A stretch of DNA of 64,000 nt from a virus. The notes under the pieces were generated by a model. The model was not told where the DNA came from. It ran no database searches and saw only the letters and a program-made list of their open reading frames with translations. This document shows, piece by piece, positions 3,225-31,300 of this stretch (within the stretch, counting starts at the first letter, position 1; each line of letters begins with the position of its first letter). Made by a program: the position numbers and the translations under genes. The stretch is from IMG/VR virus record IMGVR_UViG_3300044712_000340, positions 29,533 to 93,532 of that record. The stretch is one strand, 5' to 3'.

Positions 3225-4301
3225 ATGAGTTACTATGAAATAGCCAAAGAACAAAGAGATAGAGGTAAGTTAGGATTAAATAAAGGTATACCAATACTTC
3301 TTCCTAAGTTTAGAAGGTATATACCTAATATACAAAAAGGTAAGTTCTATTTGATAGCAATGGATTCTGGGACAGGTAAAACAAAGTTGACAAATTATCT
3401 ATTTATGTATACACCTTTCTTTCAATGGGTAAAAGCTAAAGGTAATTTTGATATTGATATTAGATACTACACAGCAGAGATGCCTATAGAAGAAATAATA
3501 GCAGAATTTCATGCTTATTGGGTGTTTCTTAATAGTCAAAAACTAACAGACATGGATCATATCTACTCTTTTGGTGAGAACAAGCTAGATAAAGAGATTG
3601 ATGATATGTTAGAATCTAATGAATGTAAAGATATTACTAAGGAATTTGAAAAGAAAGTAAAAATTATAAATGAATCCTTTGGTAGAAAGTATATTTACAA
3701 ACAACTAATAGCTAGTGCTGAAAGAAATGGTACAATATCCTGGGAAACCAATAATGACTCACATTTTATAAAATCCTACAAAGAACACAATCCTAATATG
3801 TATAATATCAATATAGTAGATAACTTTCAAAGACTGGTTAGTTTACCAGGTGAAAGTTCTAAACAAACTATTGATGAGTTATCAAGACAGATGGATTGGG
3901 GAAGACAGAAGTTTAACCAAATATGGGTTGGATTACAACAAATCAATAGAAACACTAAGAATCTTGATAGGTATAAATTAGGCCAGTATTTTCCTGGCCC
4001 AGAGTCTTTAAAAGATACAGAAAACCCTTTTCATGATTGTCAAGTGTGTATAGTTGGTATTAGTCCTAAAGCTTTAAACCTTAAAGAGTATGATGGGTAT
4101 AAAGTAGCTCATGACAAGGAAAGTAAAGGATTAATGGATAGACTTAGACCTATTAGAATATTGAAAAATAGAGGAGGTATATCTAATAAAACAGGATATT
4201 TAGGATTTCTAGGAGAATGTGCCCATTTCTTTGAACTACCAGAAGCAGATAAAATATCTGTTAAATTTTATGATGATTTTTATAATAATTATGGAGAGTA
4301 A
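3225..4301 (+). CDS. DnaB-like (SF4) replicative helicase
   Basis: Walker A AMDSGTGKT, YTAEM, Walker B IVDNFQ, LQQINR, LKDT, ILKNRGG. Confidence 0.8.
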   Translation: MSYYEIAKEQRDRGKLGLNKGIPILLPKFRRYIPNIQKGKFYLIAMDSGTGKTKLTNYLFMYTPFFQWVKAKGNFDIDIRYYTAEMPIEEIIAEFHAYWVFLNSQKLTDMDHIYSFGENKLDKEIDDMLESNECKDITKEFEKKVKIINESFGRKYIYKQLIASAERNGTISWETNNDSHFIKSYKEHNPNMYNINIVDNFQRLVSLPGESSKQTIDELSRQMDWGRQKFNQIWVGLQQINRNTKNLDRYKLGQYFPGPESLKDTENPFHDCQVCIVGISPKALNLKEYDGYKVAHDKESKGLMDRLRPIRILKNRGGISNKTGYLGFLGECAHFFELPEADKISVKFYDDFYNNYGE

Positions 4302-4456
4302 TGTTACACCAAGAGAAAATATTAAAAGAAATTTTAGTTGATTCATATCGTACATGTGATAAATGCAATAAAACTATACAAGAATGTAGTGAAGAACTAA
4401 TAAAGCTACTTGAAGAAAATGAGTACAATGTACAGCATAAAACATGGGATATTTAA
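4301..4456 (+). CDS. hypothetical protein (51 aa, not in ORF track)
   Basis: TAATG coupling with helicase stop; contains CDKC. Confidence 0.5.
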   Translation: MLHQEKILKEILVDSYRTCDKCNKTIQECSEELIKLLEENEYNVQHKTWDI

Positions 4457-4465
4457 CTAGTAATT

Positions 4466-4639
4466 ATGATAGTAGAAGTAACATATCAATCAAGTGATTT
4501 GTATAGAGGTAAATGCTCAAATTGTGGTGAATGGACTACTACTCTTGTTAAAGGAGAAGGTAGGTGTATTGACTGCATTGAAGATGAGAGATTCTTTGAT
4601 GAAACTATGAAAATAAAACAAAATGAAATTAGAGATTGA
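4466..4639 (+). CDS. small zinc-finger protein (57 aa, not in ORF track)
   Basis: CSNC...CIDC. Confidence 0.55.
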   Translation: MIVEVTYQSSDLYRGKCSNCGEWTTTLVKGEGRCIDCIEDERFFDETMKIKQNEIRD

Positions 4640-6319: not shown

Positions 6320-7354
6320 ATGTGTTTAGTAGATGAGTTAGTAAATGAAAGCTTGTCTATTACAAACATATTAAGGTATATTGATGATTACTCAATATAT
6401 TCTAAATATATAGGAGAAGAGTTAGAGTTAAATACTTGTTACTCTTCTCCCATTAGAGAAGGGGATGATATACCTTCCTTTTGTTTGTATAAGACAAATA
6501 ATAAAATTAAATTCAAGGATTTTGCAAGAGCAGAACTGAAAGGAGATATTTTTGATTTTGTAAAAATACTTATAGGAAAGGAAAAATTCAAAGAAATCCC
6601 CTTGTATAGAGTATTACAACAAATAGATTCTGATTTTCAATTAGGTCTATATACAGATGTAGGAGAGTTACCTAAACTACAAATAAGAAAAATAAGTGAT
6701 ATTAAAGTTAAAGATAAATACACTATTAATGTTACTTCCCACAAAATACCAACACAAGAATTTACAGATTATTGGGAAAATAAATATGATATAACAGAGG
6801 ATATATTAAAAATGTACAATTGTACCAATCCTCAAATATTACACTTTACCTCTAAATCAAATAAATTTCATGTATACCCTAAAAGTTTATGCATATCTTA
6901 TCAGATAGGAGGAAAATATAAAATTTATTTTCCATTCGAACATAAATCAAAAAAATTCAGAAATGACTTTCCTTCCAATTGGGTAGAAGGTTATATGCAA
7001 CTAAAAAGGAAGAATAATTTCTTTATTATAACTAAAGCCATGAAAGAAGTTATGTTTTTTAGAAAGCATTTTGATTGGGACACAGTAGCAGGTAAATCAG
7101 AAACTACGATGATACCAAATCATCTTATGATAAAACTCTTTAATGATTATGAAAAAGGTTATATATGGTTAGATAGGGATGAAGCAGGTAGACAATCTCA
7201 AAAAGATTATATTGCTAAATACCCTAATTTAATACCAATAGTATATCCTGATTATATAACACAAAAAGACGTAACTGATAGGTATGATTTTATGAAACAG
7301 GCTGGATTACAGCAAATTGCATTAAATGAAATAAAACAATTAATAAATAAATAA
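6320..7354 (+). CDS. DNA primase (DnaG-like, crAss type)
   Basis: SPIRE..PSF, FKDF..GDIFDFV N-terminal domain; TOPRIM-like IITKAMKEV and WLDRDEAG; KDVTD. Confidence 0.8.
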   Translation: MCLVDELVNESLSITNILRYIDDYSIYSKYIGEELELNTCYSSPIREGDDIPSFCLYKTNNKIKFKDFARAELKGDIFDFVKILIGKEKFKEIPLYRVLQQIDSDFQLGLYTDVGELPKLQIRKISDIKVKDKYTINVTSHKIPTQEFTDYWENKYDITEDILKMYNCTNPQILHFTSKSNKFHVYPKSLCISYQIGGKYKIYFPFEHKSKKFRNDFPSNWVEGYMQLKRKNNFFIITKAMKEVMFFRKHFDWDTVAGKSETTMIPNHLMIKLFNDYEKGYIWLDRDEAGRQSQKDYIAKYPNLIPIVYPDYITQKDVTDRYDFMKQAGLQQIALNEIKQLINK

Positions 7355-7357
7355 AGT

Positions 7358-7966
7358 ATGAAAACAATTAAATTAAAGTTATTAACTCAAAATCAATTAC
7401 AACCAATTACAACAAATGCAAGTACTTTTGCAGAATTTAAAGCAGATGAACAAGTTAAAGCTTTAGGTATTGATTGGAGTAGTCATAAATTAATAGACAG
7501 GGCTACAAGGGCTACATTTGAATTGGACGAAGCTAAGATGCCAGAAGTAGACTCCATCATGTTTGTTACCCCTACTAAAACTAAATCAGGCATGTTATCT
7601 TATAAAGAAGCCAAAGAAGAAATTCAAAAACTTATATCTGAAGGTAAAATTGAGAAAATCAGTTGGGTAGGTAAATCCACTAAAGATTTGAATGATCTTT
7701 TACAAAAATCTTTTACAGAAAAAACTGGGAAATTAGTTACTGAAAAAGTAGCACAAGAATTAAACGAAAAGGATACTATTGTAGAAGAAATTCAAGAGTT
7801 ACTTACTAAAGTATCTAACAAAGTAAATGAATTATCTAAATTATCAGGTAATGATACTTCTGTTCTTGCTAAAGAACTTAAAGAGTTTAAAGAAAACTTA
7901 GCAGATTTTGTCACTAATGATGATCTAACTAAGGAGTTAAAAGATATTCAAAGCAGACTTAAATAA
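7358..7966 (+). CDS. candidate ubiquitin-like protein precursor (78-aa beta-grasp-like domain ending KTKSG, plus helical/coiled-coil extension)
   Basis: Strand-strand-helix-strand pattern (KTIKLKLL, QPITTN, TFAEFK, IMFVTP); Gly78; adjacent to E2/JAB/E1 genes. Confidence 0.6.
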   Translation: MKTIKLKLLTQNQLQPITTNASTFAEFKADEQVKALGIDWSSHKLIDRATRATFELDEAKMPEVDSIMFVTPTKTKSGMLSYKEAKEEIQKLISEGKIEKISWVGKSTKDLNDLLQKSFTEKTGKLVTEKVAQELNEKDTIVEEIQELLTKVSNKVNELSKLSGNDTSVLAKELKEFKENLADFVTNDDLTKELKDIQSRLK

Positions 7967-7970
7967 TAGT

Positions 7971-7992
7971 AAAGAGCCGAAAGGCTCTTTTT
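7971..7992 (+). terminator. intrinsic terminator, GAAA tetraloop
   Basis: AAAGAGCC-GAAA-GGCTCTTT-TT. Confidence 0.8.
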
Positions 7993-8011
7993 CATTTTAA
8001 ATAGTTATAAA

Positions 8012-9211
8012 ATGGTGATACCAGAAGAATTATTAAAAATGTCAGAAAAAGAGCTTAAAGAGGCTCTACCTGATAATATATTTAAAGCAACCTACATACA
8101 ACATCACTCAGAAATATATAAAATACTACATAAATTAAATAAAATTTTAACTGTTTATTCTTACACTGATAAAGTTATCACTACAATATCTAATCAATTA
8201 CACGAGGATTACTATGAGCCTTTTACAATAAGTAGCTTTAAAATTGCAGTAGAAAGTAAGAGAGAAAAATATTTAAAAACTTTAGATGTAGATAAGTTCA
8301 TTAATTGGATAGAAAGTGTAGTAAAATCTTATATAGACGAAGATAAATATGATATACAAAAAATAAATGAAAGTAGAGTAGAGTTAATACTATACTATCC
8401 TGAAATATCTATTACTAATAGTGTAGAATTTAAGCATACTTTAAGAGATGTATATTTAAAGTATATATTTATTAAATCAAAAAATCTATGGGGATTTAAT
8501 TCTATATCTATGTGTAGAAATACTTATACTGAAAAAGAATGGTTAGATTATTATATGCATTCTCATATCGCTGTGTCTTACTTAAATTCATATTCTTCTA
8601 GTTTTTGTATGGGCAGTAATACTCCTACAAGTAACTTGTTAACTCAGTTTCAAAAAAATTTATTAAAATTTAGAGAATTTATACTATTATTTGAAGCTTA
8701 TTTAAGTTGGGAAAGCATAGAAGGTAAACCTTATAGGTATATAGAAAATGTATTGAAACCTATAGAAGCTAATTATGATTTTATAGGTTTAGAAGTTATA
8801 CCTGATTACATTACTGTAGTATATACTTTAACTAAAAGAGTTTTAAGTATTTTACAAGATATACAATTTGACTATATTCCTCTTGTATTTAGTAGAAATT
8901 ACACTATTATATTAAAACAATCTACTGTAGATGAAATAGATGAACTACTTACTAAAGAATACCCTGAGTATTGTTATACTGTTTTAGATGACAATACAGT
9001 AAAATTAAAAGAAAGAGTTAGATTAACTGTAAATGGTAAACATACTGATATTTATTTTAAAGGTGAGAATAAATTAATAACTATAATCCCTGAAAAAGAT
9101 ACAGTTAAAGAAGATTTACCTATAAAAATACATAGAAGTTTATTAAATTCAGTAACAAAAGAGATTAAAGAGCAATTCGAACAATTTATAATTAATAAAA
9201 TATTAGGATGA
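8012..9211 (+). CDS. prokaryotic E2-like (UBC-fold) protein
   Basis: YMHSHI...SFCMG (H183, H185, C199) matches the HPN/HxH...hC(L/M)G E2 signature; followed by WESIEGKPY. Confidence 0.6.
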   Translation: MVIPEELLKMSEKELKEALPDNIFKATYIQHHSEIYKILHKLNKILTVYSYTDKVITTISNQLHEDYYEPFTISSFKIAVESKREKYLKTLDVDKFINWIESVVKSYIDEDKYDIQKINESRVELILYYPEISITNSVEFKHTLRDVYLKYIFIKSKNLWGFNSISMCRNTYTEKEWLDYYMHSHIAVSYLNSYSSSFCMGSNTPTSNLLTQFQKNLLKFREFILLFEAYLSWESIEGKPYRYIENVLKPIEANYDFIGLEVIPDYITVVYTLTKRVLSILQDIQFDYIPLVFSRNYTIILKQSTVDEIDELLTKEYPEYCYTVLDDNTVKLKERVRLTVNGKHTDIYFKGENKLITIIPEKDTVKEDLPIKIHRSLLNSVTKEIKEQFEQFIINKILG

Positions 9212-10227
9212 AAGAAGAAAATATAGGAGTGATTGGTACACTTAAAATAAGTAAAAGATTACAAAAGATAATAGATTATCTTCATTATAAAATAGGATCT
9301 GTAGAGTGGTCAGGAGTTTTATACTATAAATTAACTAAAGGTAATTTAGAGGATTTAGAAGATTTAGAATTTGAGGCTACTTTTATGTATCCTATGAATA
9401 TAGGATCTTCAACATATACTGAGTTTGATTACAATGGAGAACTAGTATCTGCTTATGATATATTTGAGGAAGGACTTGAGCAATCTACATCTCTCATACA
9501 TACACATCATTCTATGGGAGCATTTCATTCTGGTACAGATTTAAAAGAACTTACAGATAATGCAGATAAATATAATTATTATCTATCATTAGTAGTAAAT
9601 TTCTCACATACTTATTGTGCTAAATTAGCTATTCCTTCTACTGAAATTGTAAATTATACCTCATATATTAAAAATCAAGAAGGTAAATTGGTTAATTTTC
9701 ATGGAGAAAGAGAAGAGAAGATACTCCTTATAGGTGATTTAAATATTGTATTTGAAGAAGAAGTAACTAATGAATCTTGGCTAGATGAGAGAATAAAAAC
9801 ACTACAAGAAAAGTCTAAAGAACAAAAAATTAGATTTAAAGATGCTAATGTTTTTGATATAGGTCTACCTAACTTTGGTTTTGATAGATTTAAAGAAAAT
9901 CTAAAAAGTTCTATAAGTGCTACTACAGAAGTAACTACAGATAAATTTCTAGCTTCTTTACTTTCTTTAAATGAAAAGATTACAGATAGTTTTGAAGCTA
10001 TTCTTAAATTGCATTTAGATGCTACAGAAGAAGAATTAGATATACTTGAAGAGGCATTAGAGTCTAATTACGAAATTATACATGAGAATTTGTATGGTAT
10101 GGATGCTGATATAAGAAGTGACTCTATAAATGCTTTACATGAGTTGAATAAATATCTCTCTAAGTATGGAAAGTATAAAATATTTGATGTTTTAGATTTA
10201 ATACTATCTAGCTATGTCGCAATTTAA
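9208..10227 (+). CDS. JAB/MPN+ (JAMM) metalloprotease
   Basis: VEWSG glutamate plus IHTHHSMGAFHSGTD (HxH-x7-S-x2-D). Confidence 0.85.
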   Translation: MKEENIGVIGTLKISKRLQKIIDYLHYKIGSVEWSGVLYYKLTKGNLEDLEDLEFEATFMYPMNIGSSTYTEFDYNGELVSAYDIFEEGLEQSTSLIHTHHSMGAFHSGTDLKELTDNADKYNYYLSLVVNFSHTYCAKLAIPSTEIVNYTSYIKNQEGKLVNFHGEREEKILLIGDLNIVFEEEVTNESWLDERIKTLQEKSKEQKIRFKDANVFDIGLPNFGFDRFKENLKSSISATTEVTTDKFLASLLSLNEKITDSFEAILKLHLDATEEELDILEEALESNYEIIHENLYGMDADIRSDSINALHELNKYLSKYGKYKIFDVLDLILSSYVAI

Positions 10228-10873
10228 TGATAGATTTAAAGACGCTCCTTGGTACAATCAAAGTTGTAATGAAGAAATATTAGTTGTAGGAGCAGGAGGT
10301 ATAGGCTCTAATTTTGTTTATTGCTTGGGTAAATCTACTTTAATGAGAATATTTTTAATGGATTCAGATAAAGTAGAATATCACAATGTAGGTACACAGT
10401 TTTTCACAAAAGAAGATGTAGGGAGTAATAAAGTACGGGCAATGTATGAATACATGAGTAAATGTAATAGGTACATTGGTACGATACAAAGAAGGTATGA
10501 TAGCTCATTTTCTCCAATTATGGTAGCTGCTGTAGATAACATGAAAACTAGAAAAGAGATATTCGATGCATGGAGGCAAAAAGAAAATAGAGAGCTATTA
10601 CTTGATGGTAGATTGCGTGCAAATTATTATGAAATTTATGCTGTTATTTCAGGTAAGGAAGATGAATATGAAAAAACATTATTCTTAGATTCAGAAGTAG
10701 ACTCAGGGCCTTGTACATTTAAGCAAACAGCTTATTTTGGTATGTTGATAGGAGCTAGAATGACACAAATAATAGTTAATTACTTAACTAATAAGTATTC
10801 AGAAGAACCTATTTGTAATGTACCATTTAAAGTCAGTGAATTTGGTGAACCTTTTAGTATAGAAATATTATGA
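10214..10873 (+). CDS. ThiF/MoeB/E1-family adenylyltransferase
   Basis: VVGAGGIGS, DSDKVEYHNVGTQ, AVDNMKTR, LDGR; candidate catalytic Cys167 in GPCT. Confidence 0.88.
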   Translation: MSQFNDRFKDAPWYNQSCNEEILVVGAGGIGSNFVYCLGKSTLMRIFLMDSDKVEYHNVGTQFFTKEDVGSNKVRAMYEYMSKCNRYIGTIQRRYDSSFSPIMVAAVDNMKTRKEIFDAWRQKENRELLLDGRLRANYYEIYAVISGKEDEYEKTLFLDSEVDSGPCTFKQTAYFGMLIGARMTQIIVNYLTNKYSEEPICNVPFKVSEFGEPFSIEIL

Positions 10874-11370
10874 TTTTAAAAAGAAATGATAAGATTTTAC
10901 CATTGATTTTTACTTTGCCTGAGTATGAGAATTCTAAGTATATAGACCTAGTGTTTCCAACTTATTGTTCTACTGTGTATAAAGAATCAGCATATAATTT
11001 TGTTACTGATAATAATCATGGGTATGTACATAGAACAAGGTATAATGAGTACTATAAGACTTTCTATTTAGGAATAATAGATAAAAAAGAAGAAAGTATA
11101 ATTTCAATGTTAGTAAAGTACAATAATGAAAATTATTTATTATTATGTAAAGATTTTGCAGAAAAAAACACAAGTGCTACAAGAAAAATAAAGAAAAGCG
11201 CAGTAGAAACATATAACATAGATGTAAAAAAGAAATTAATACTAGCTGAAGAAAGCGAATTATATGAATATTATTTAAAACTTATAAGTCCTACATTTGA
11301 AGATTATAAACAAGAGAATAAAGTAAAATTAGCTAAAGAATTTATAGAATGGAAGAAAAACAACGATTAG
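10870..11370 (+). CDS. hypothetical protein coupled to E1 gene
   Basis: 166 aa, ATGA overlap. Confidence 0.6.
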   Translation: MILKRNDKILPLIFTLPEYENSKYIDLVFPTYCSTVYKESAYNFVTDNNHGYVHRTRYNEYYKTFYLGIIDKKEESIISMLVKYNNENYLLLCKDFAEKNTSATRKIKKSAVETYNIDVKKKLILAEESELYEYYLKLISPTFEDYKQENKVKLAKEFIEWKKNND

Positions 11371-12925: not shown

Positions 12926-13429
12926 ATGAGTAATAGAAATAAACAAGTAGGCTCAAATTTAGAACGCAAGTTGTTCCAGCTTATTAATAGAAGAACAATA
13001 GCATCACAACAAGGGGTAGAATTAACAGAAAAGGAATTATCTAATAAAGATTTAGAGGCTATACCAGAAAGTAATTTTGTATTATTTCCTAAATTAGGGT
13101 CTACAAGAAAGTTGAGTAGAAGTATGGATGCTAAAAAGAAAGATATTACTCCTGAGAACATGGATAGATTACATGACTTTCCTTATATATTACAAGCTAA
13201 AAGTTTAGCTGTAAGTGCTGCTCCTTATGCCAAATTATTAGCAGAAGTTAAAGAAAATAATAAATGGGGAATACCTGTAGTTATTCATGAGCAAACTAAA
13301 AAACAAGGAAGTAGATTTGTAAAGCAAGATGATTTTGCTATAATGTATCGTAAAGATTTTATTGATATGATATTTAAAATAGCTGAGTTAGAATTTGAGT
13401 TAAAACAAAAAGAACATTTTGAAAAATGA
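12926..13429 (+). CDS. Holliday-junction-resolvase-like PD-(D/E)xK nuclease
   Basis: NKQVGSNLER, SRSMDAKKKDI, ILQAK, PVVIH. Confidence 0.6.
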   Translation: MSNRNKQVGSNLERKLFQLINRRTIASQQGVELTEKELSNKDLEAIPESNFVLFPKLGSTRKLSRSMDAKKKDITPENMDRLHDFPYILQAKSLAVSAAPYAKLLAEVKENNKWGIPVVIHEQTKKQGSRFVKQDDFAIMYRKDFIDMIFKIAELEFELKQKEHFEK

Positions 13430-13947
13430 GTAGTACAGGTAGAGGGGGAGTTAAATTAGACCAAGATAAATATTATACACCTATTTGGTGTGTAGAAAAA
13501 CTTATATCTAAGATACATATTACTGAAATAAAATCTTTCTTAGAACCTTGTAAAGGAGATGGTAGAATACTTACTTATATACCCACAGATATTACTAGAG
13601 ATTGGTGTGAATTAAGTGATGATAAAGACTATTTAACTTTTATTCCTTCAATGGAGTATGATTTGATTATTACCAATCCTCCTTTTAGTTTATCCATAGA
13701 GTTTTTAACTAAATCTTTAAAGGAGGCTAAAACAGTTTGTTATTTACAAAGATTGAATTGGTTAGGTAGTAAAACTAGAAAAGATTTTTGGAATACTAAT
13801 ACTCCAGACAAGTTATTTATATTGTCACAAAGACCTCAGTTTATGAAAGAAATGGGATTAAAGTCTGGAAGTGATAGTACAGAATATGCTTGGTTTATAT
13901 GGGATAAATTAGGAATTGTAAATGGTAAACATATAGAAATATTATAA
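13426..13947 (+). CDS. orphan amino (N6-adenine-type) DNA methyltransferase
   Basis: DKYYTP, LEPCKGDG (SAM binding), ITNPPF (motif IV), EYAWFIW. Confidence 0.85.
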   Translation: MSSTGRGGVKLDQDKYYTPIWCVEKLISKIHITEIKSFLEPCKGDGRILTYIPTDITRDWCELSDDKDYLTFIPSMEYDLIITNPPFSLSIEFLTKSLKEAKTVCYLQRLNWLGSKTRKDFWNTNTPDKLFILSQRPQFMKEMGLKSGSDSTEYAWFIWDKLGIVNGKHIEIL

Positions 13948-28311: not shown

Positions 28312-31300
28312 TTCATCTCCAAATCTTTTCATTCTTTCAACAGAATTTAGTAAAGGTAATTGTGATTCTATAAAAGGAGACCATTTACTTTCATCTTTAT
28401 GGTAACCTGATTGGTATATCATGTCTTCATCTTCACCAAACATTTCTGTAATACTTAAACTATATAATTTCCACATATCATCTAATAGTGATGTCATTGA
28501 TGTAGGGTTTTTAATTAAGTCTGACCAAGCTTTAGGATTGTAGTAGAATTGAATATCTTTATTTATTTTTTGCATGATGTTCATGATACTTAGTTGTGCT
28601 ATATTAGCATTTTTACATTTCTTATCATCGCCACACATTCCTTTTTTCATTAAAGCATATAATCCAAAACTAAGAACCAAAGTACTTAATTCAGCTAAAT
28701 TTACTTTCATATTTGCTTTATCTACTTCTGATAGTTCTCCTGTTTTCCATGCTTTATATATAGCACTAGGATTTAACTTGTATTTCTTTGTTAATTCTAC
28801 CCAAGTTCTATATCTACCTTTAGTAGTAATGTTTCTATTATAATCCATCTTCTCTACTCCAAATCTAGAATGAAAAGCCTCAAAGAACCATAATCTAAAC
28901 ATAGATCCCATTCTACCTGCAAGTGTGTCTTTTACCATTAAAGGATTTGTATAATCTCCATGTATTTCCTGGATTTGAGATTTTACTCTAGTTACCATAG
29001 CTGTAATAGCATCTGCCCCTCTTTTATTTTCAAATACCCATTCATCAGATAAAGTACCATTTTCATTAATGGCTTCCCACATTGATTTAGTTTCTCCTTT
29101 ATCATTAGTAACTTTTGCATGTAACATCATAGCTATCATTACAGTACCCTGATTAGATTTCTCTGTAGCTGTTTGAATAGCATAAGGTTTAATAGACTTT
29201 GTTAGTTTGAAAAACCAGTTCTTACCTTCATCAAATTTATTTGATTGTTTAAATTCATATAGAATATCTCCTAAAATATTATAGTTTTCTGTTACTTTAT
29301 TGAATTTTTTACTTTGAGTATATAACATAGATTCTGCTTGTAACCATTCTTTCATATTATATAATCTGCCTTCAGCAGCTTTATACATATTGGTTATCTT
29401 GCCTATAGCTAAGTTAGCTATACCAGCAGGTATATTCCATCCCATACCTTTAAGTCTCATGAAAGACATTAAACCTTTAACTAAACTATTTGTTGTAACT
29501 CTAGTACCTAAAGAATCTAATTCCCTATTTAAAATATCTTGTTCTTCTTTAGTTATATTAGGATTCTCTAGTAGTTGTTTTATCTCTTTTTGTCTTTGTT
29601 TATCTTGTTTTGTAGTTACTGTAAATAAATTTTTAGAAGTATCCCCTTTAGGTTGTTTATAGTATGCTTCCTTTAAAAAGTAATCTACCATTTCTTTTAA
29701 GTTATCTATATATCCTTGACCTACTGTATTACCTTTTGAGTCTATTATTTCATCCCCAGTATTTACTGTAGAATTAGGTAAATAAGTCATAGCTACATTA
29801 ACCATATCTTCTATCATTACAGAATGTTTATATGTAGTAGCGGCTAAGTTTAATAAATTTAGAGATTTAAATAAAGTACCTGAATCTTTATCTGTATTCA
29901 TTTTATTAAATATCTCATTAGATGCATCAATATATAATTGTTTTCTCTCAGTATCATCTAACTCTCTATCTAGTTTTAATTGTGTCTCTAATTTCTTTTT
30001 ATTGTATAGTTCTTTTATCATTCCATCTATTGTAGATGTTCCTAGTCTGATAGTTCTTATTGGTTTTCCTGTTATAGGATCTATTTTTTCTTTTAAAGGT
30101 TTTCCACCCTCTAATTCTCCTAATATTTCATTAACTAATTCTTTAGTAAGAAATTCAGGTACACCGACTTTATTTAATTTAGCTAGCATATCTGCTTCTA
30201 TAAAAGTTAAAGAAGTAGACTTTAAATCGCTATGTCCATATAATTTTTGAGCGGTATTTGTTATTTCTTTAGCCTTTTTATAGAACTCATAAGCTACAGG
30301 AATTGCTTCTATTTGTTCAAAATTAGTATCATAATATCCTAAATCTACTCCAGATTTAGTAAATCTTTTTGGAACTATAACTAGGAAAGTGTCTTTACCT
30401 ACAACATCATATATAGATCCACCTTTAGCATTATTAATAGCTTTTATTCTATAAATAGGGGAATTATTTCTTTCCCATACTTCTAAATCTGCTTTTTGTT
30501 CATTAGTTAGTTCTTCTTCTCCATACTCTACAGATATATGATCTTCTCTAACCTTTAGATAATTCTCATAGGCTGTTTTAGCTTTTTCTATATATTCTTT
30601 AGTCCCTATTACACCTAAATTAGTTTCTATTTCTTTTATATATTTAGGATCATTAAGTTTAGTAGGGTCTATAGTGAATTGATTATTTTTTCTAAAAGAA
30701 ACATTTTGATTATCATGTTTGTCACTAAAATACTTTTGAGAGAATTTATGTACTAATCTACCTGTAGGTGTCTTATGTTTAATATCATCTATTTCTACAT
30801 CAGTAGTCTGGAAGAATAGACTCTCATTAAATCCAGAAGATTTCATAGATTTATATAATTCTGCTAAATCTCTTGATTTAATCTTTACTTCTCTATATGC
30901 AGAATCATTAGCTTCATTAACTATTTTAGCTACATACTGTGCTAAGGCTTGTCCTACTCTATTTAAAGATAGTGTATTTTTAAACCATGCACCTAACTTA
31001 TGAGGTAAGGATATAATTTGTTCAAATGTAAGTCCTGTATTGAATGTAGAGTTAACTCCATTAGATAGTATTACTTTACCTTTGTTTAATAGTTTAGGCA
31101 TCAATAATGCAGCTCTTCTACTTATATCTGAAAATTTATCCTGTATAATTTCAGAATCTCTCATTTCTTCATCAAGAAACATATGAGTTTCCTCACTAAA
31201 ATCACCAGACTTAATCCACATCTTTAATTTAGTTACAGAATCATTAAACTCTGCTGGGCTTAACTTAGGTTTATTTAGTATTTTTTCTATTTCAATTAAG

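Follow-up and report, generated by a model that had tools for sequence, protein, structure and literature searches.

A conserved four-gene cassette in the replication block of Bacteroidota podophages probably encodes a ubiquitin-like conjugation cascade

Introduction

In bacteria, conjugation of ubiquitin-like proteins (Ubl) has so far been tied to anti-phage defence, namely to the Cap2/3 proteins of CBASS, to Bil and probably to Bub. In BilABCD, the genes follow the order Ubl, E2 (conjugating enzyme), deubiquitinase (DUB) and E1 (activating enzyme), and the single conserved Gly at which BilC cuts has no more than nine residues behind it (10.1101/2023.09.26.559546). In Bub, the Ubl is fused to a C-terminal partner, from which it is freed by a JAB domain cutting after a conserved Gly, and a Ser-His pair can replace the E2 Cys (PMC11601596). 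Here, we describe a cassette of four genes, for a Ubl, an E2-like protein, a JAB/JAMM metallopeptidase and a ThiF/E1 enzyme, in 64,000 nucleotides (nt) of viral DNA (positions 29,533 to 93,532 of the IMG/VR virus record IMGVR_UViG_3300044712_000340, hereafter the window), and we argue that it probably specifies a phage-borne Ubl conjugation cascade similar to a stripped-down BilABCD, the chemistry of which we infer from homology.

The closest described system is indeed BilABCD (types I and II, that is, the 6d and CEHH/6C operons of Iyer et al. 2006), which shares with the cassette (i) all four components and their order, Ubl-E2-JAB-E1, (ii) a Ubl precursor in which a lone conserved Gly precedes an extension, short or long, that the JAB removes, a step that is predicted in the phage, and (iii) the lack of a gene for an E3 (ligase), the Bil E2 being thought to choose its targets itself (10.1101/2023.09.26.559546; PMC11601596). 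On the phage side, the only association of a Ubl with a JAB that we found in the literature examined is that of TAPI (Ubl) with TAPK (JAB plus NlpC/P60) in lambda and T1, for which it has been predicted that the JAB cleaves the Ubl at its C-terminal Gly (PMC1779556). That pair belongs to the tail module, has neither E1 nor E2 and comes with no evidence of conjugation, whereas the cassette belongs to the replication module and has both enzymes. We found no paper describing the cassette or linking crAss-like phages, crAss001 or Crassvirales to ThiF, JAB/JAMM, E1-like or ubiquitin-like proteins, in a body of literature that was covered incompletely, so that an earlier description is possible. The cassette genes go unmentioned in the main comparative studies of crAss-like phages and in a 2023 review, as do phage-encoded systems in the papers on Bil and Bub.

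A fixed cassette in the replication block

The source genome is a complete virus record of 93,532 bp with direct terminal repeats and a G+C content of ~28%, which also encodes a 2450-amino acid (aa) virion protein of the crAss type (phrog_16227), and the phage is crAss-like/FpV4-like. Four consecutive open reading frames (ORFs) on the + strand span positions 7358-10873 of the window, preceded by genes for a Sak4-like annealing protein and a primase (phrog_12622, E 1.4e-26) and followed by genes for a 5'-3' exonuclease (PF02739, E 1.7e-15) and a dUTPase. The second and third genes overlap by 4 nt (9208 vs 9211) and the third and fourth by 14 nt (10214 vs 10227). The first-pass annotation of this DNA, made from the letters of the window and its ORFs, had placed a Ubl, E2, JAB and E1 set with overlapping second to fourth genes between primase and exonuclease, and our analysis bears it out on the layout and supports it on the identities of the parts and on their forming one conserved system. 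Every motif that it had named in the four proteins is present and strongly constrained in relatives.

A pattern scan of IMG/VR yielded 197 viral contigs with a JAB relative, and 80 loci were examined. The order E2-like, JAB, E1 is kept in all 80. Immediately before it there is a Ubl gene in 69, and the complete set of four is detected in 66, the other loci being cut by contig ends or having a gene below threshold. The usual setting is the one seen in the window, with Sak4 and primase upstream and exonuclease downstream. The cassette occurs in the cultured gut phage crAss001, as gp79, gp78, gp77 ('metalloprotease') and gp76 ('thiamine biosynthesis protein ThiF'), in other Steigviridae, and in Flavobacterium phage FpV4 and its relatives; in crAss001 and FpV4 the ThiF and metalloprotease genes are annotated only singly, as the first-pass annotation had stated for some crAss-like phages. 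When its suggestion of synteny across Crassvirales is put to these data, the fixed order in 80/80 loci is strongly positive, but the cassette does not extend to all Crassvirales, since crAss002 (MN917146, Intestiviridae) has no JAB relative and no ThiF domain at E <= 1. It is thus clade-specific and separates Crassvirales lineages rather than being universal. It has a fixed place in the replication block across a large clade of Bacteroidota podophages, made up of the crAss001/Steigviridae branch, the FpV4 group and numerous uncultured relatives, and the pattern of motifs and linkage is far beyond chance.

Because it is fixed in the replication block of a large clade, the cassette appears to serve the infection cycle of the phage and not host defence. 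The first-pass annotation had put forward the modification of replisome or host proteins, or counter-defence, and these roles are conjectural. A different role would be counter-defence, in which the cassette neutralises host Ubl immunity (Bil, CBASS Cap2/Cap3), the JAB stripping host tags and the Ubl and enzymes acting as decoys or competitors, which is compatible with conjugation. Bil systems do tag phage tail proteins (10.1101/2023.09.04.556158), a Bacteroides species is among the carriers of the 6d/Bil-type operon (PMC1779556), and the cassette copies the Bil gene order. We nevertheless regard this role as quite unlikely, since a fixed site in the replication module of ~200 phage contigs has the look of a core function and not of a variable anti-defence island, deconjugation would need the JAB only, and no PADLOC model matches the JAB, the Ubl or the E2-like protein.

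The JAB peptidase

The JAB motif, E33 ... H98-T-H100-x7-S108-x2-D111, is intact, and each of its residues is conserved in 100% of 71 non-identical sequences. When compared with PF14464 (Prok-JAB), the window protein reaches 13.5 bits (E 0.066), under the 25-bit cut-off, whereas 19 of 28 homologues match the same model at E <= 0.01 (best E 7.9e-06); by its motif and its homologues, it is therefore a divergent member of Prok-JAB. We predict that it trims the Ubl precursor and also takes the tag off again. Outside the cassette, a profile of the JAB family has a weak match in crAss001 (MH675552, 47724-48170, + strand; E 8.4e-5) inside an ORF of 2343 aa. This match covers profile positions 194-339, that is, the helical C-terminal part, and may be mere coiled-coil similarity.

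Apart from such family-level matches, the three other components of the cassette besides the E1 are close to invisible to standard searches. For the Ubl, E2-like and JAB proteins of the window, nothing useful came from Pfam, PHROGs, NCBIfam or PADLOC, nor from phmmer and profile hmmsearch against PDB sequences. Pfam scans of 58 E2-like and 56 Ubl family members were no more informative, and a blastn search with the cassette against GenBank phages returned no match.

The E1 enzyme

The E1 is the component that sequence models recognise best, with 57.7 bits to PF00899 over residues 20-193 (E 1.2e-15; cut-off 28.1 bits). It has the motifs GAGGIG (26-31), D50xD52, DNxxxR (108-113), DGR (131-133) and GPC167. 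Among 67 sequences, G26, G28, D52, N58, Q62, K73, D108 and R113 are 100% conserved and D131-G-R133 95-97%, and C167 is present in 63, the remaining four having gaps. C167 lies ~35 residues past DGR, the position expected for the crossover loop and presumably comparable to those of ThiF C184 and UBA5 C250; alignments with PDB sequences reached only residues 16-117. Weaker, partial matches in the Rossmann half to PRTRC_ThiF, to the Cap2-type E1-E2 of PADLOC and to BilD are all under family cut-offs. With 219 aa, this enzyme is among the smallest candidate Ubl-activating enzymes. In crAss001 (positions 7179-8327 of locus L081) and in cr106_1 (7162-8373 of locus L082), the E1 has 383-403 aa and the ThiF domain starts at around residue 150-165, following an N-terminal extension that has no Pfam match and no counterpart in the window and FpV4 enzymes (219-228 aa).

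A ThiF-type enzyme next to a beta-grasp protein could also bring to mind sulfur transfer. The tag would then be a ThiS/MoaD/CysO-like carrier that the JAB trims (as in Mec+/CysO or QbsD/QbsE) and that, once the ThiF enzyme has adenylated it, is thiocarboxylated and delivers sulfur for a modified nucleotide or cofactor made during replication. Known operons of this kind also combine ThiF, beta-grasp and JAB proteins (PMC1779556), the best NCBIfam matches of the E1 are ThiF models (all far under their cut-offs), and the cassette adjoins genes of nucleotide metabolism such as dUTPase. The first-pass annotation had remarked that no genes of the sulfur-relay type lie nearby, and this holds genome-wide, as no rhodanese, cysteine desulfurase or ThiS family member is found in the complete 93.5-kb genome at E <= 1, though host enzymes could supply the sulfur. 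The E1 has no rhodanese domain, the tag ends in K-S-G and not in G-G, and a conserved protein with the fold of ubiquitin-conjugating enzymes (UBC fold, see below) has no place in known sulfur relays. Taken with the evidence in its favour, these points make a sulfur carrier very unlikely.

The predicted Ubl tag and its passenger

The first-pass annotation had called the N-terminal 78 residues of the 202-aa protein beta-grasp on the basis of motifs, and three structural searches, all matching the ubiquitin family, have since strengthened this call. In the AlphaFold2 (AF2) model, the predicted local distance difference test score (pLDDT) is 80-92 at residues 1-60. With residues 1-78, the Foldseek matches are nearly all Ubls, among them ubiquitin, ISG15, NEDD8 and bacterial BilA (8tyx_A), with probabilities of 0.5-0.97 and a template modelling (TM) score, on the target, of ~0.5-0.55; the E-values are weak (0.05-0.3), as is usual for a domain of 78 residues. 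VIA aligns ~60 of 72-76 residues (Z 4.5-4.7, root mean square deviation (rmsd) 2.6-3.0), and a structure search of the ESM Atlas gives a TM of 0.72 to a cluster of PF00240 (ubiquitin domain). The modelled domain thus has a ubiquitin-like beta-grasp fold.

Its C-terminal end is sharply defined. Among 29 homologues, the N-terminal 78 residues are highly conserved and end in P-T-K-T-K-S-G, and conservation collapses right after G78. Gly78 is invariant in 56-59 non-identical sequences and is the sole invariant column across the whole Ubl family, while K76 is conserved at 94%. K74 and K76 stand at -4 and -2 relative to the terminal Gly, which we take to be the spacing of R72 and R74 in ubiquitin. 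Several phages have free Ubls of 75-79 aa that stop one residue past the Gly (...KVKSGK, ...EIKSGK, ...KVKSGF, ...QTKSGE), and the tail has no counterpart in Ubl homologues of 75-99 aa, while gp79 of crAss001 is a fusion of Ubl and tail. In the related, uncultured phage cr106_1 (MT774378; positions 3402-4605 of locus L082), the Ubl ORF ends in ...KSGKF, two residues past the Gly, and the tail is a separate ORF, with a gene for an HNH homing endonuclease (3682-4197) lying exactly between the two; this split is at the predicted processing site. The free Ubls, the cr106_1 split and the collapse of conservation after a sole invariant column argue together that Gly78 is a true module boundary and the functional end of the tag. 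It would be exposed after trimming, with JAB cleavage predicted at this residue.

The tail is modelled as helices 82-94, 108-163 and 168-201, that is, a short helix-loop segment followed by a long helical region, and its extreme C-terminus carries a conserved acidic motif, L-A-D-F-V-T-x-D-D-L. By eye, the start of the tail (aa 79-120, window 7592-7720) resembles a helix-extension-helix motif (SAP/Rho_N-like). A clear domain of this type was set aside and remains a lead, as Pfam finds SAP in only one of 56 family members (E 3e-4) and a histone-H1-like model in one.

In 49 of 58 related loci, the Ubl gene is followed by a hairpin and T-tract, a pattern seen in 3.3% of random windows of the same length, and the stem sequences differ from locus to locus. 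Such a terminator-like element following the Ubl gene suggests that the tag is transcribed above the level of the enzymes or separately from them.

The E2-like protein

The AF2 model of the E2-like protein (mean pLDDT 87.8, with 12 homologues in the alignment) consists of a small N-terminal beta domain, a UBC-fold core (aa ~86-250) and a C-terminal alpha/beta domain. The core has a helix at 93-105, strands at 113-119, 122-135, 141-156 and 159-173, and helices at 205-231. The two motifs of interest, H183-S184-H185 and F-C199-M-G, place S184-H185 and C199 within a 30-residue segment (174-204) between strand beta4 and helix 205. In an alignment of 58 sequences with 15-32% identity to the window protein, H185, C199, G201, E234, S235, G238 and P240 are invariant.

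In a VIA search of 48,161 chains, which is independent of Foldseek, the top of the list is taken by UBE2J2, Ubc9, UbcH5b, ubiquitin E2 variant (UEV) and RWD domains and CBASS Cap2, over residues ~86-250, with 100-140 residues aligned at rmsd 3.4-4.5 and Z 5-6, the latter being for this tool a range in which a common arrangement alone is possible. The match to UbcH8, for example, aligns 123 of 150 residues (Z 5.9, rmsd 3.6), and when the top 1000 chains of Foldseek were re-examined, 37 reached Z >= 5, nearly all of them E2, UEV, RWD or Cap2. Foldseek itself gives no significant match to the model in the PDB, with UFC1 at rank 43-45 (E ~0.2). These modest scores point to a UBC fold for the modelled core. 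A further lead comes from the ESM Atlas, in which the protein is linked to a cluster of PF14460 (Prok-E2_D) by features (0.88) and also appears in the structure list.

As no E2-family sequence model matches, the E2 assignment rests on fold, conservation and context. The earlier call, made from motifs, therefore stands as regards the fold seen by VIA and the invariance of C199, the conservation of which it had proposed to check, and finds no backing from sequence models. When a profile of the core was searched against 1.84 billion representatives, 3378 cluster representatives at 50% identity were found at E <= 1e-3 (3177 at E <= 1e-10). The best 150 matches listed are all clear members of the E2-like family, with no bridge to known E2 families among them, and the relatives in BFVD are all 'uncharacterized' proteins of crAss-like and other podophages. 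The core thus defines a family of at least 3378 clusters (50% identity) outside all Pfam and PHROG models.

Does the cassette need an E2 at all? The E1 alone could activate and transfer the Ubl, in the style of archaeal SAMP/UbaA or of Urm1/Uba4, in which case the 399-aa protein would serve as a non-catalytic adaptor of the UEV/RWD type, or as the principal substrate, instead of carrying a thioester. Such tagging would accommodate the fold-search scores of UEV (Tsg101, VPS37A) and RWD domains, which are as high as those of catalytic E2s, the absence of the classical His-Pro-Asn (HPN) motif and the lack of a match to any E2 sequence family. However, an invariant Cys199-x-Gly201 together with Ser184-His185 at 15-32% identity is hard to explain for a non-catalytic adaptor, and the gene is translationally coupled to those of the JAB and the E1 in 80/80 loci, so that tagging independent of an E2 seems to us rather unlikely.

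On either side of the core, the N-terminal beta domain (aa 1-95, window 8012-8290) has a weak match to an SH3/PWWP-like barrel (6kco_D, Z 5.0), and the C-terminal alpha/beta domain corresponds to aa 263-399 (window 8798-9208). Matches to SAMP1/MoaD at residues 300-348 (E 0.03) and to the thioester domain TED_2 at residues 171-219 (E 0.014) were both rejected as single weak matches that the homologues do not share.

A candidate conjugation cascade

In the cascade that we favour, the 202-aa precursor would probably outnumber the enzymes, given the terminator-like hairpin behind its gene, and the JAB would cut it after Gly78 to give a 78-residue beta-grasp tag and a helical passenger. The E1, probably a homodimer like ThiF, MoeB and UBA5, would adenylate Gly78 and may load the tag onto Cys167 in the crossover loop. 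The tag would then move to the UBC-fold core, where the likeliest acceptor is Cys199 (forming a thioester) with the Ser184-His185 dyad assisting, and the E2-like protein would transfer it to lysines of phage or host proteins, a choice of substrate in which the extra N- and C-terminal domains could be instrumental. The JAB could also reverse the mark.

Several points weigh against this cascade, in addition to the range of the E2-like Z-scores given above. As for the tag, the Ubl model is weaker at residues 61-80 (pLDDT 56-73) and its last strand is not called by DSSP. As for the E1, the phage enzyme has no separate CYS domain, which BilD and eukaryotic E1s possess. As for the E2-like protein, the equivalence of C199 to the catalytic Cys of E2s is suggested by the order of secondary structure elements and by the aligned ranges; HPN is replaced in this family by (H/F)183-S184-H185; an oxyester mechanism as in Bub is possible, because an invariant Ser adjoins an invariant His; no Pfam E2 family (PF00179, PF14457-PF14462) is found in any of the 58 members at E <= 0.1; and PF14460 returns nothing from the genome at E <= 10. 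Finally, both the conjugation steps and the biological role are inferred, the former from homology.

Comparison with known systems

For all its likeness to BilABCD, the cassette departs from it in several respects. It is located in the replication module of a lytic phage, whereas Bil is found in bacterial defence islands. The phage E1 is a single adenylation domain of 219 aa, of which the PADLOC BilD model matches residues 20-116 only (E 1.3e-6), whereas BilD has an IAD-AAD-CYS architecture and a zinc site. The E2-like protein matches neither Prok-E2_D nor PADLOC models, has 399 aa with two extra domains and places His185 14 residues before Cys199, while in BilB the His follows the Cys, and the phage Ubl often carries a passenger of ~120 aa. 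The cassette would therefore work like a Bil operon but does not have the architecture of BilD and does not belong to BilB/Prok-E2_D.

Bub (6E/DUF6527) offers a second parallel, since its Ubl is also released from a fusion by a JAB, its E1 is a minimal homodimeric enzyme of the ThiF/UBA5 type, and S333 and H335 lie close together in its E2 (PMC11601596), recalling S184-H185 in the phage. The two differ in that the Bub E1 has no Cys in the crossover loop and oxyesters are formed, whereas in the phage a conserved Cys is found in the E1 as well as in the E2-like protein; moreover, the phage has no DUF6527/BubE protease, and its genes are separate instead of being Ubl-E2 or JAB-E1 fusions.

Type II CBASS (Cap2/Cap3) likewise combines E1, E2 and JAB chemistry in a phage-bacterium setting, and the E2 domain of Cap2 is among the structural matches of the E2-like protein (7to3_A, Z 5.3; 7tqd_B, Z 5.5). 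Cap2 is an E2-E1 fusion, whereas in the phage the two are separate with the JAB between them, and the conjugated moiety, which in CBASS is the C-terminus of an enzyme, is a dedicated beta-grasp Ubl in the phage. General family scans, which included no genome search aimed at CD-NTase, found no CD-NTase among the neighbours of the cassette. With PRTRC, the cassette shares a ThiF-family enzyme on a mobile element, and TIGR03736 gives a partial match (E 1.5e-11) of 44.1 bits vs a cut-off of 144.75 bits; no PRTRC model matches the other four proteins at E <= 1. The cassette thus belongs neither to PRTRC nor to Cap2/Cap3.

Feature coordinates and neighbouring genes

Table 1. Coordinates, in the window, of the cassette and of the gene that follows it
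Feature	Position	Strand	Basis
Ubl beta-grasp domain, aa 1-78, ending ...P-T-K-T-K-S-G78; predicted mature tag	7358..7591	+	AF2 model, invariant G78
Passenger tail, aa 79-202, predicted to be cut off by the JAB	7592..7966	+	Conservation drop, tail-less homologues
Whole Ubl precursor gene, 202 aa	7358-7966	+	ORF
Terminator-like hairpin, 8-bp stem, GAAA loop, T-rich tail	7971..7990	+	Hairpin scan
E2-like protein, 399 aa; modelled UBC-fold core aa ~86-250 (nt ~8267-8761); C199 codon 8606-8608	8012..9211	+	AF2 model, conservation
JAB/JAMM metallopeptidase, 339 aa; aa ~1-190 plus helical C-terminal extension	9208..10227	+	Invariant JAMM motif
Minimal single-domain ThiF/E1 adenylating enzyme, 219 aa	10214..10873	+	PF00899, motifs
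166-aa protein, function unassigned	10870..11370	+	Start overlaps E1 stop

The stop of the E1 gene is overlapped by 4 nt by the start of the next gene (10870-11370), the 166-aa product of which is conserved solely in the loci closest to the window and is possibly a fast-evolving accessory component or an unrelated neighbour. A gene close behind the E1 is always present in the loci compared (L001-L083), and it evolves fast. These genes form BLAST clusters of 23, 11 and 9 members plus smaller ones, and hhalign links two of these clusters at 97.8% but the rest only weakly. A universally conserved fifth component 3' of the E1 was thus set aside, since the genes found there fall into several clusters that are partly linked, and the gene could be a variable accessory or target-specifying component. 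Further along in the same block, a 173-aa ORF (window 13426-13947) has an N-P-P-F motif in its translation, which is typical of N6-adenine or N4-cytosine DNA methyltransferases.

Conclusion

For the phages concerned, a function can be proposed for crAss001 gp79-gp76 and for the corresponding genes of FpV4, a phage of a fish pathogen. Current annotations call these genes hypothetical or 'metalloprotease', or assign them to 'thiamine biosynthesis', which is misleading. From the conserved K-S-G terminus, lysines with a Ser-Gly remnant are expected after trypsin, and the availability of both phages in culture makes the hypothesis directly testable. We consider it plausible, though we would not go so far as to call it probable, that a large clade of abundant Bacteroidota phages including crAss001 runs its own complete Ubl cascade as a core early or middle function, tagging proteins of the host or of the phage itself, such as replication or transcription factors, for takeover of the cell.

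If true, this would be (i) the first full Ubl-E1-E2-DUB system encoded by prokaryotic viruses, and (ii) a system that uses an E2 family not recognised before, with sequence clusters in the thousands. The system might be evolutionarily linked to the Bil operons of the same gene order. It would also mean that the phage side of the conflict has Ubl conjugation too, not as a sporadic acquisition but fixed in the replication module of a very large and ecologically dominant group.

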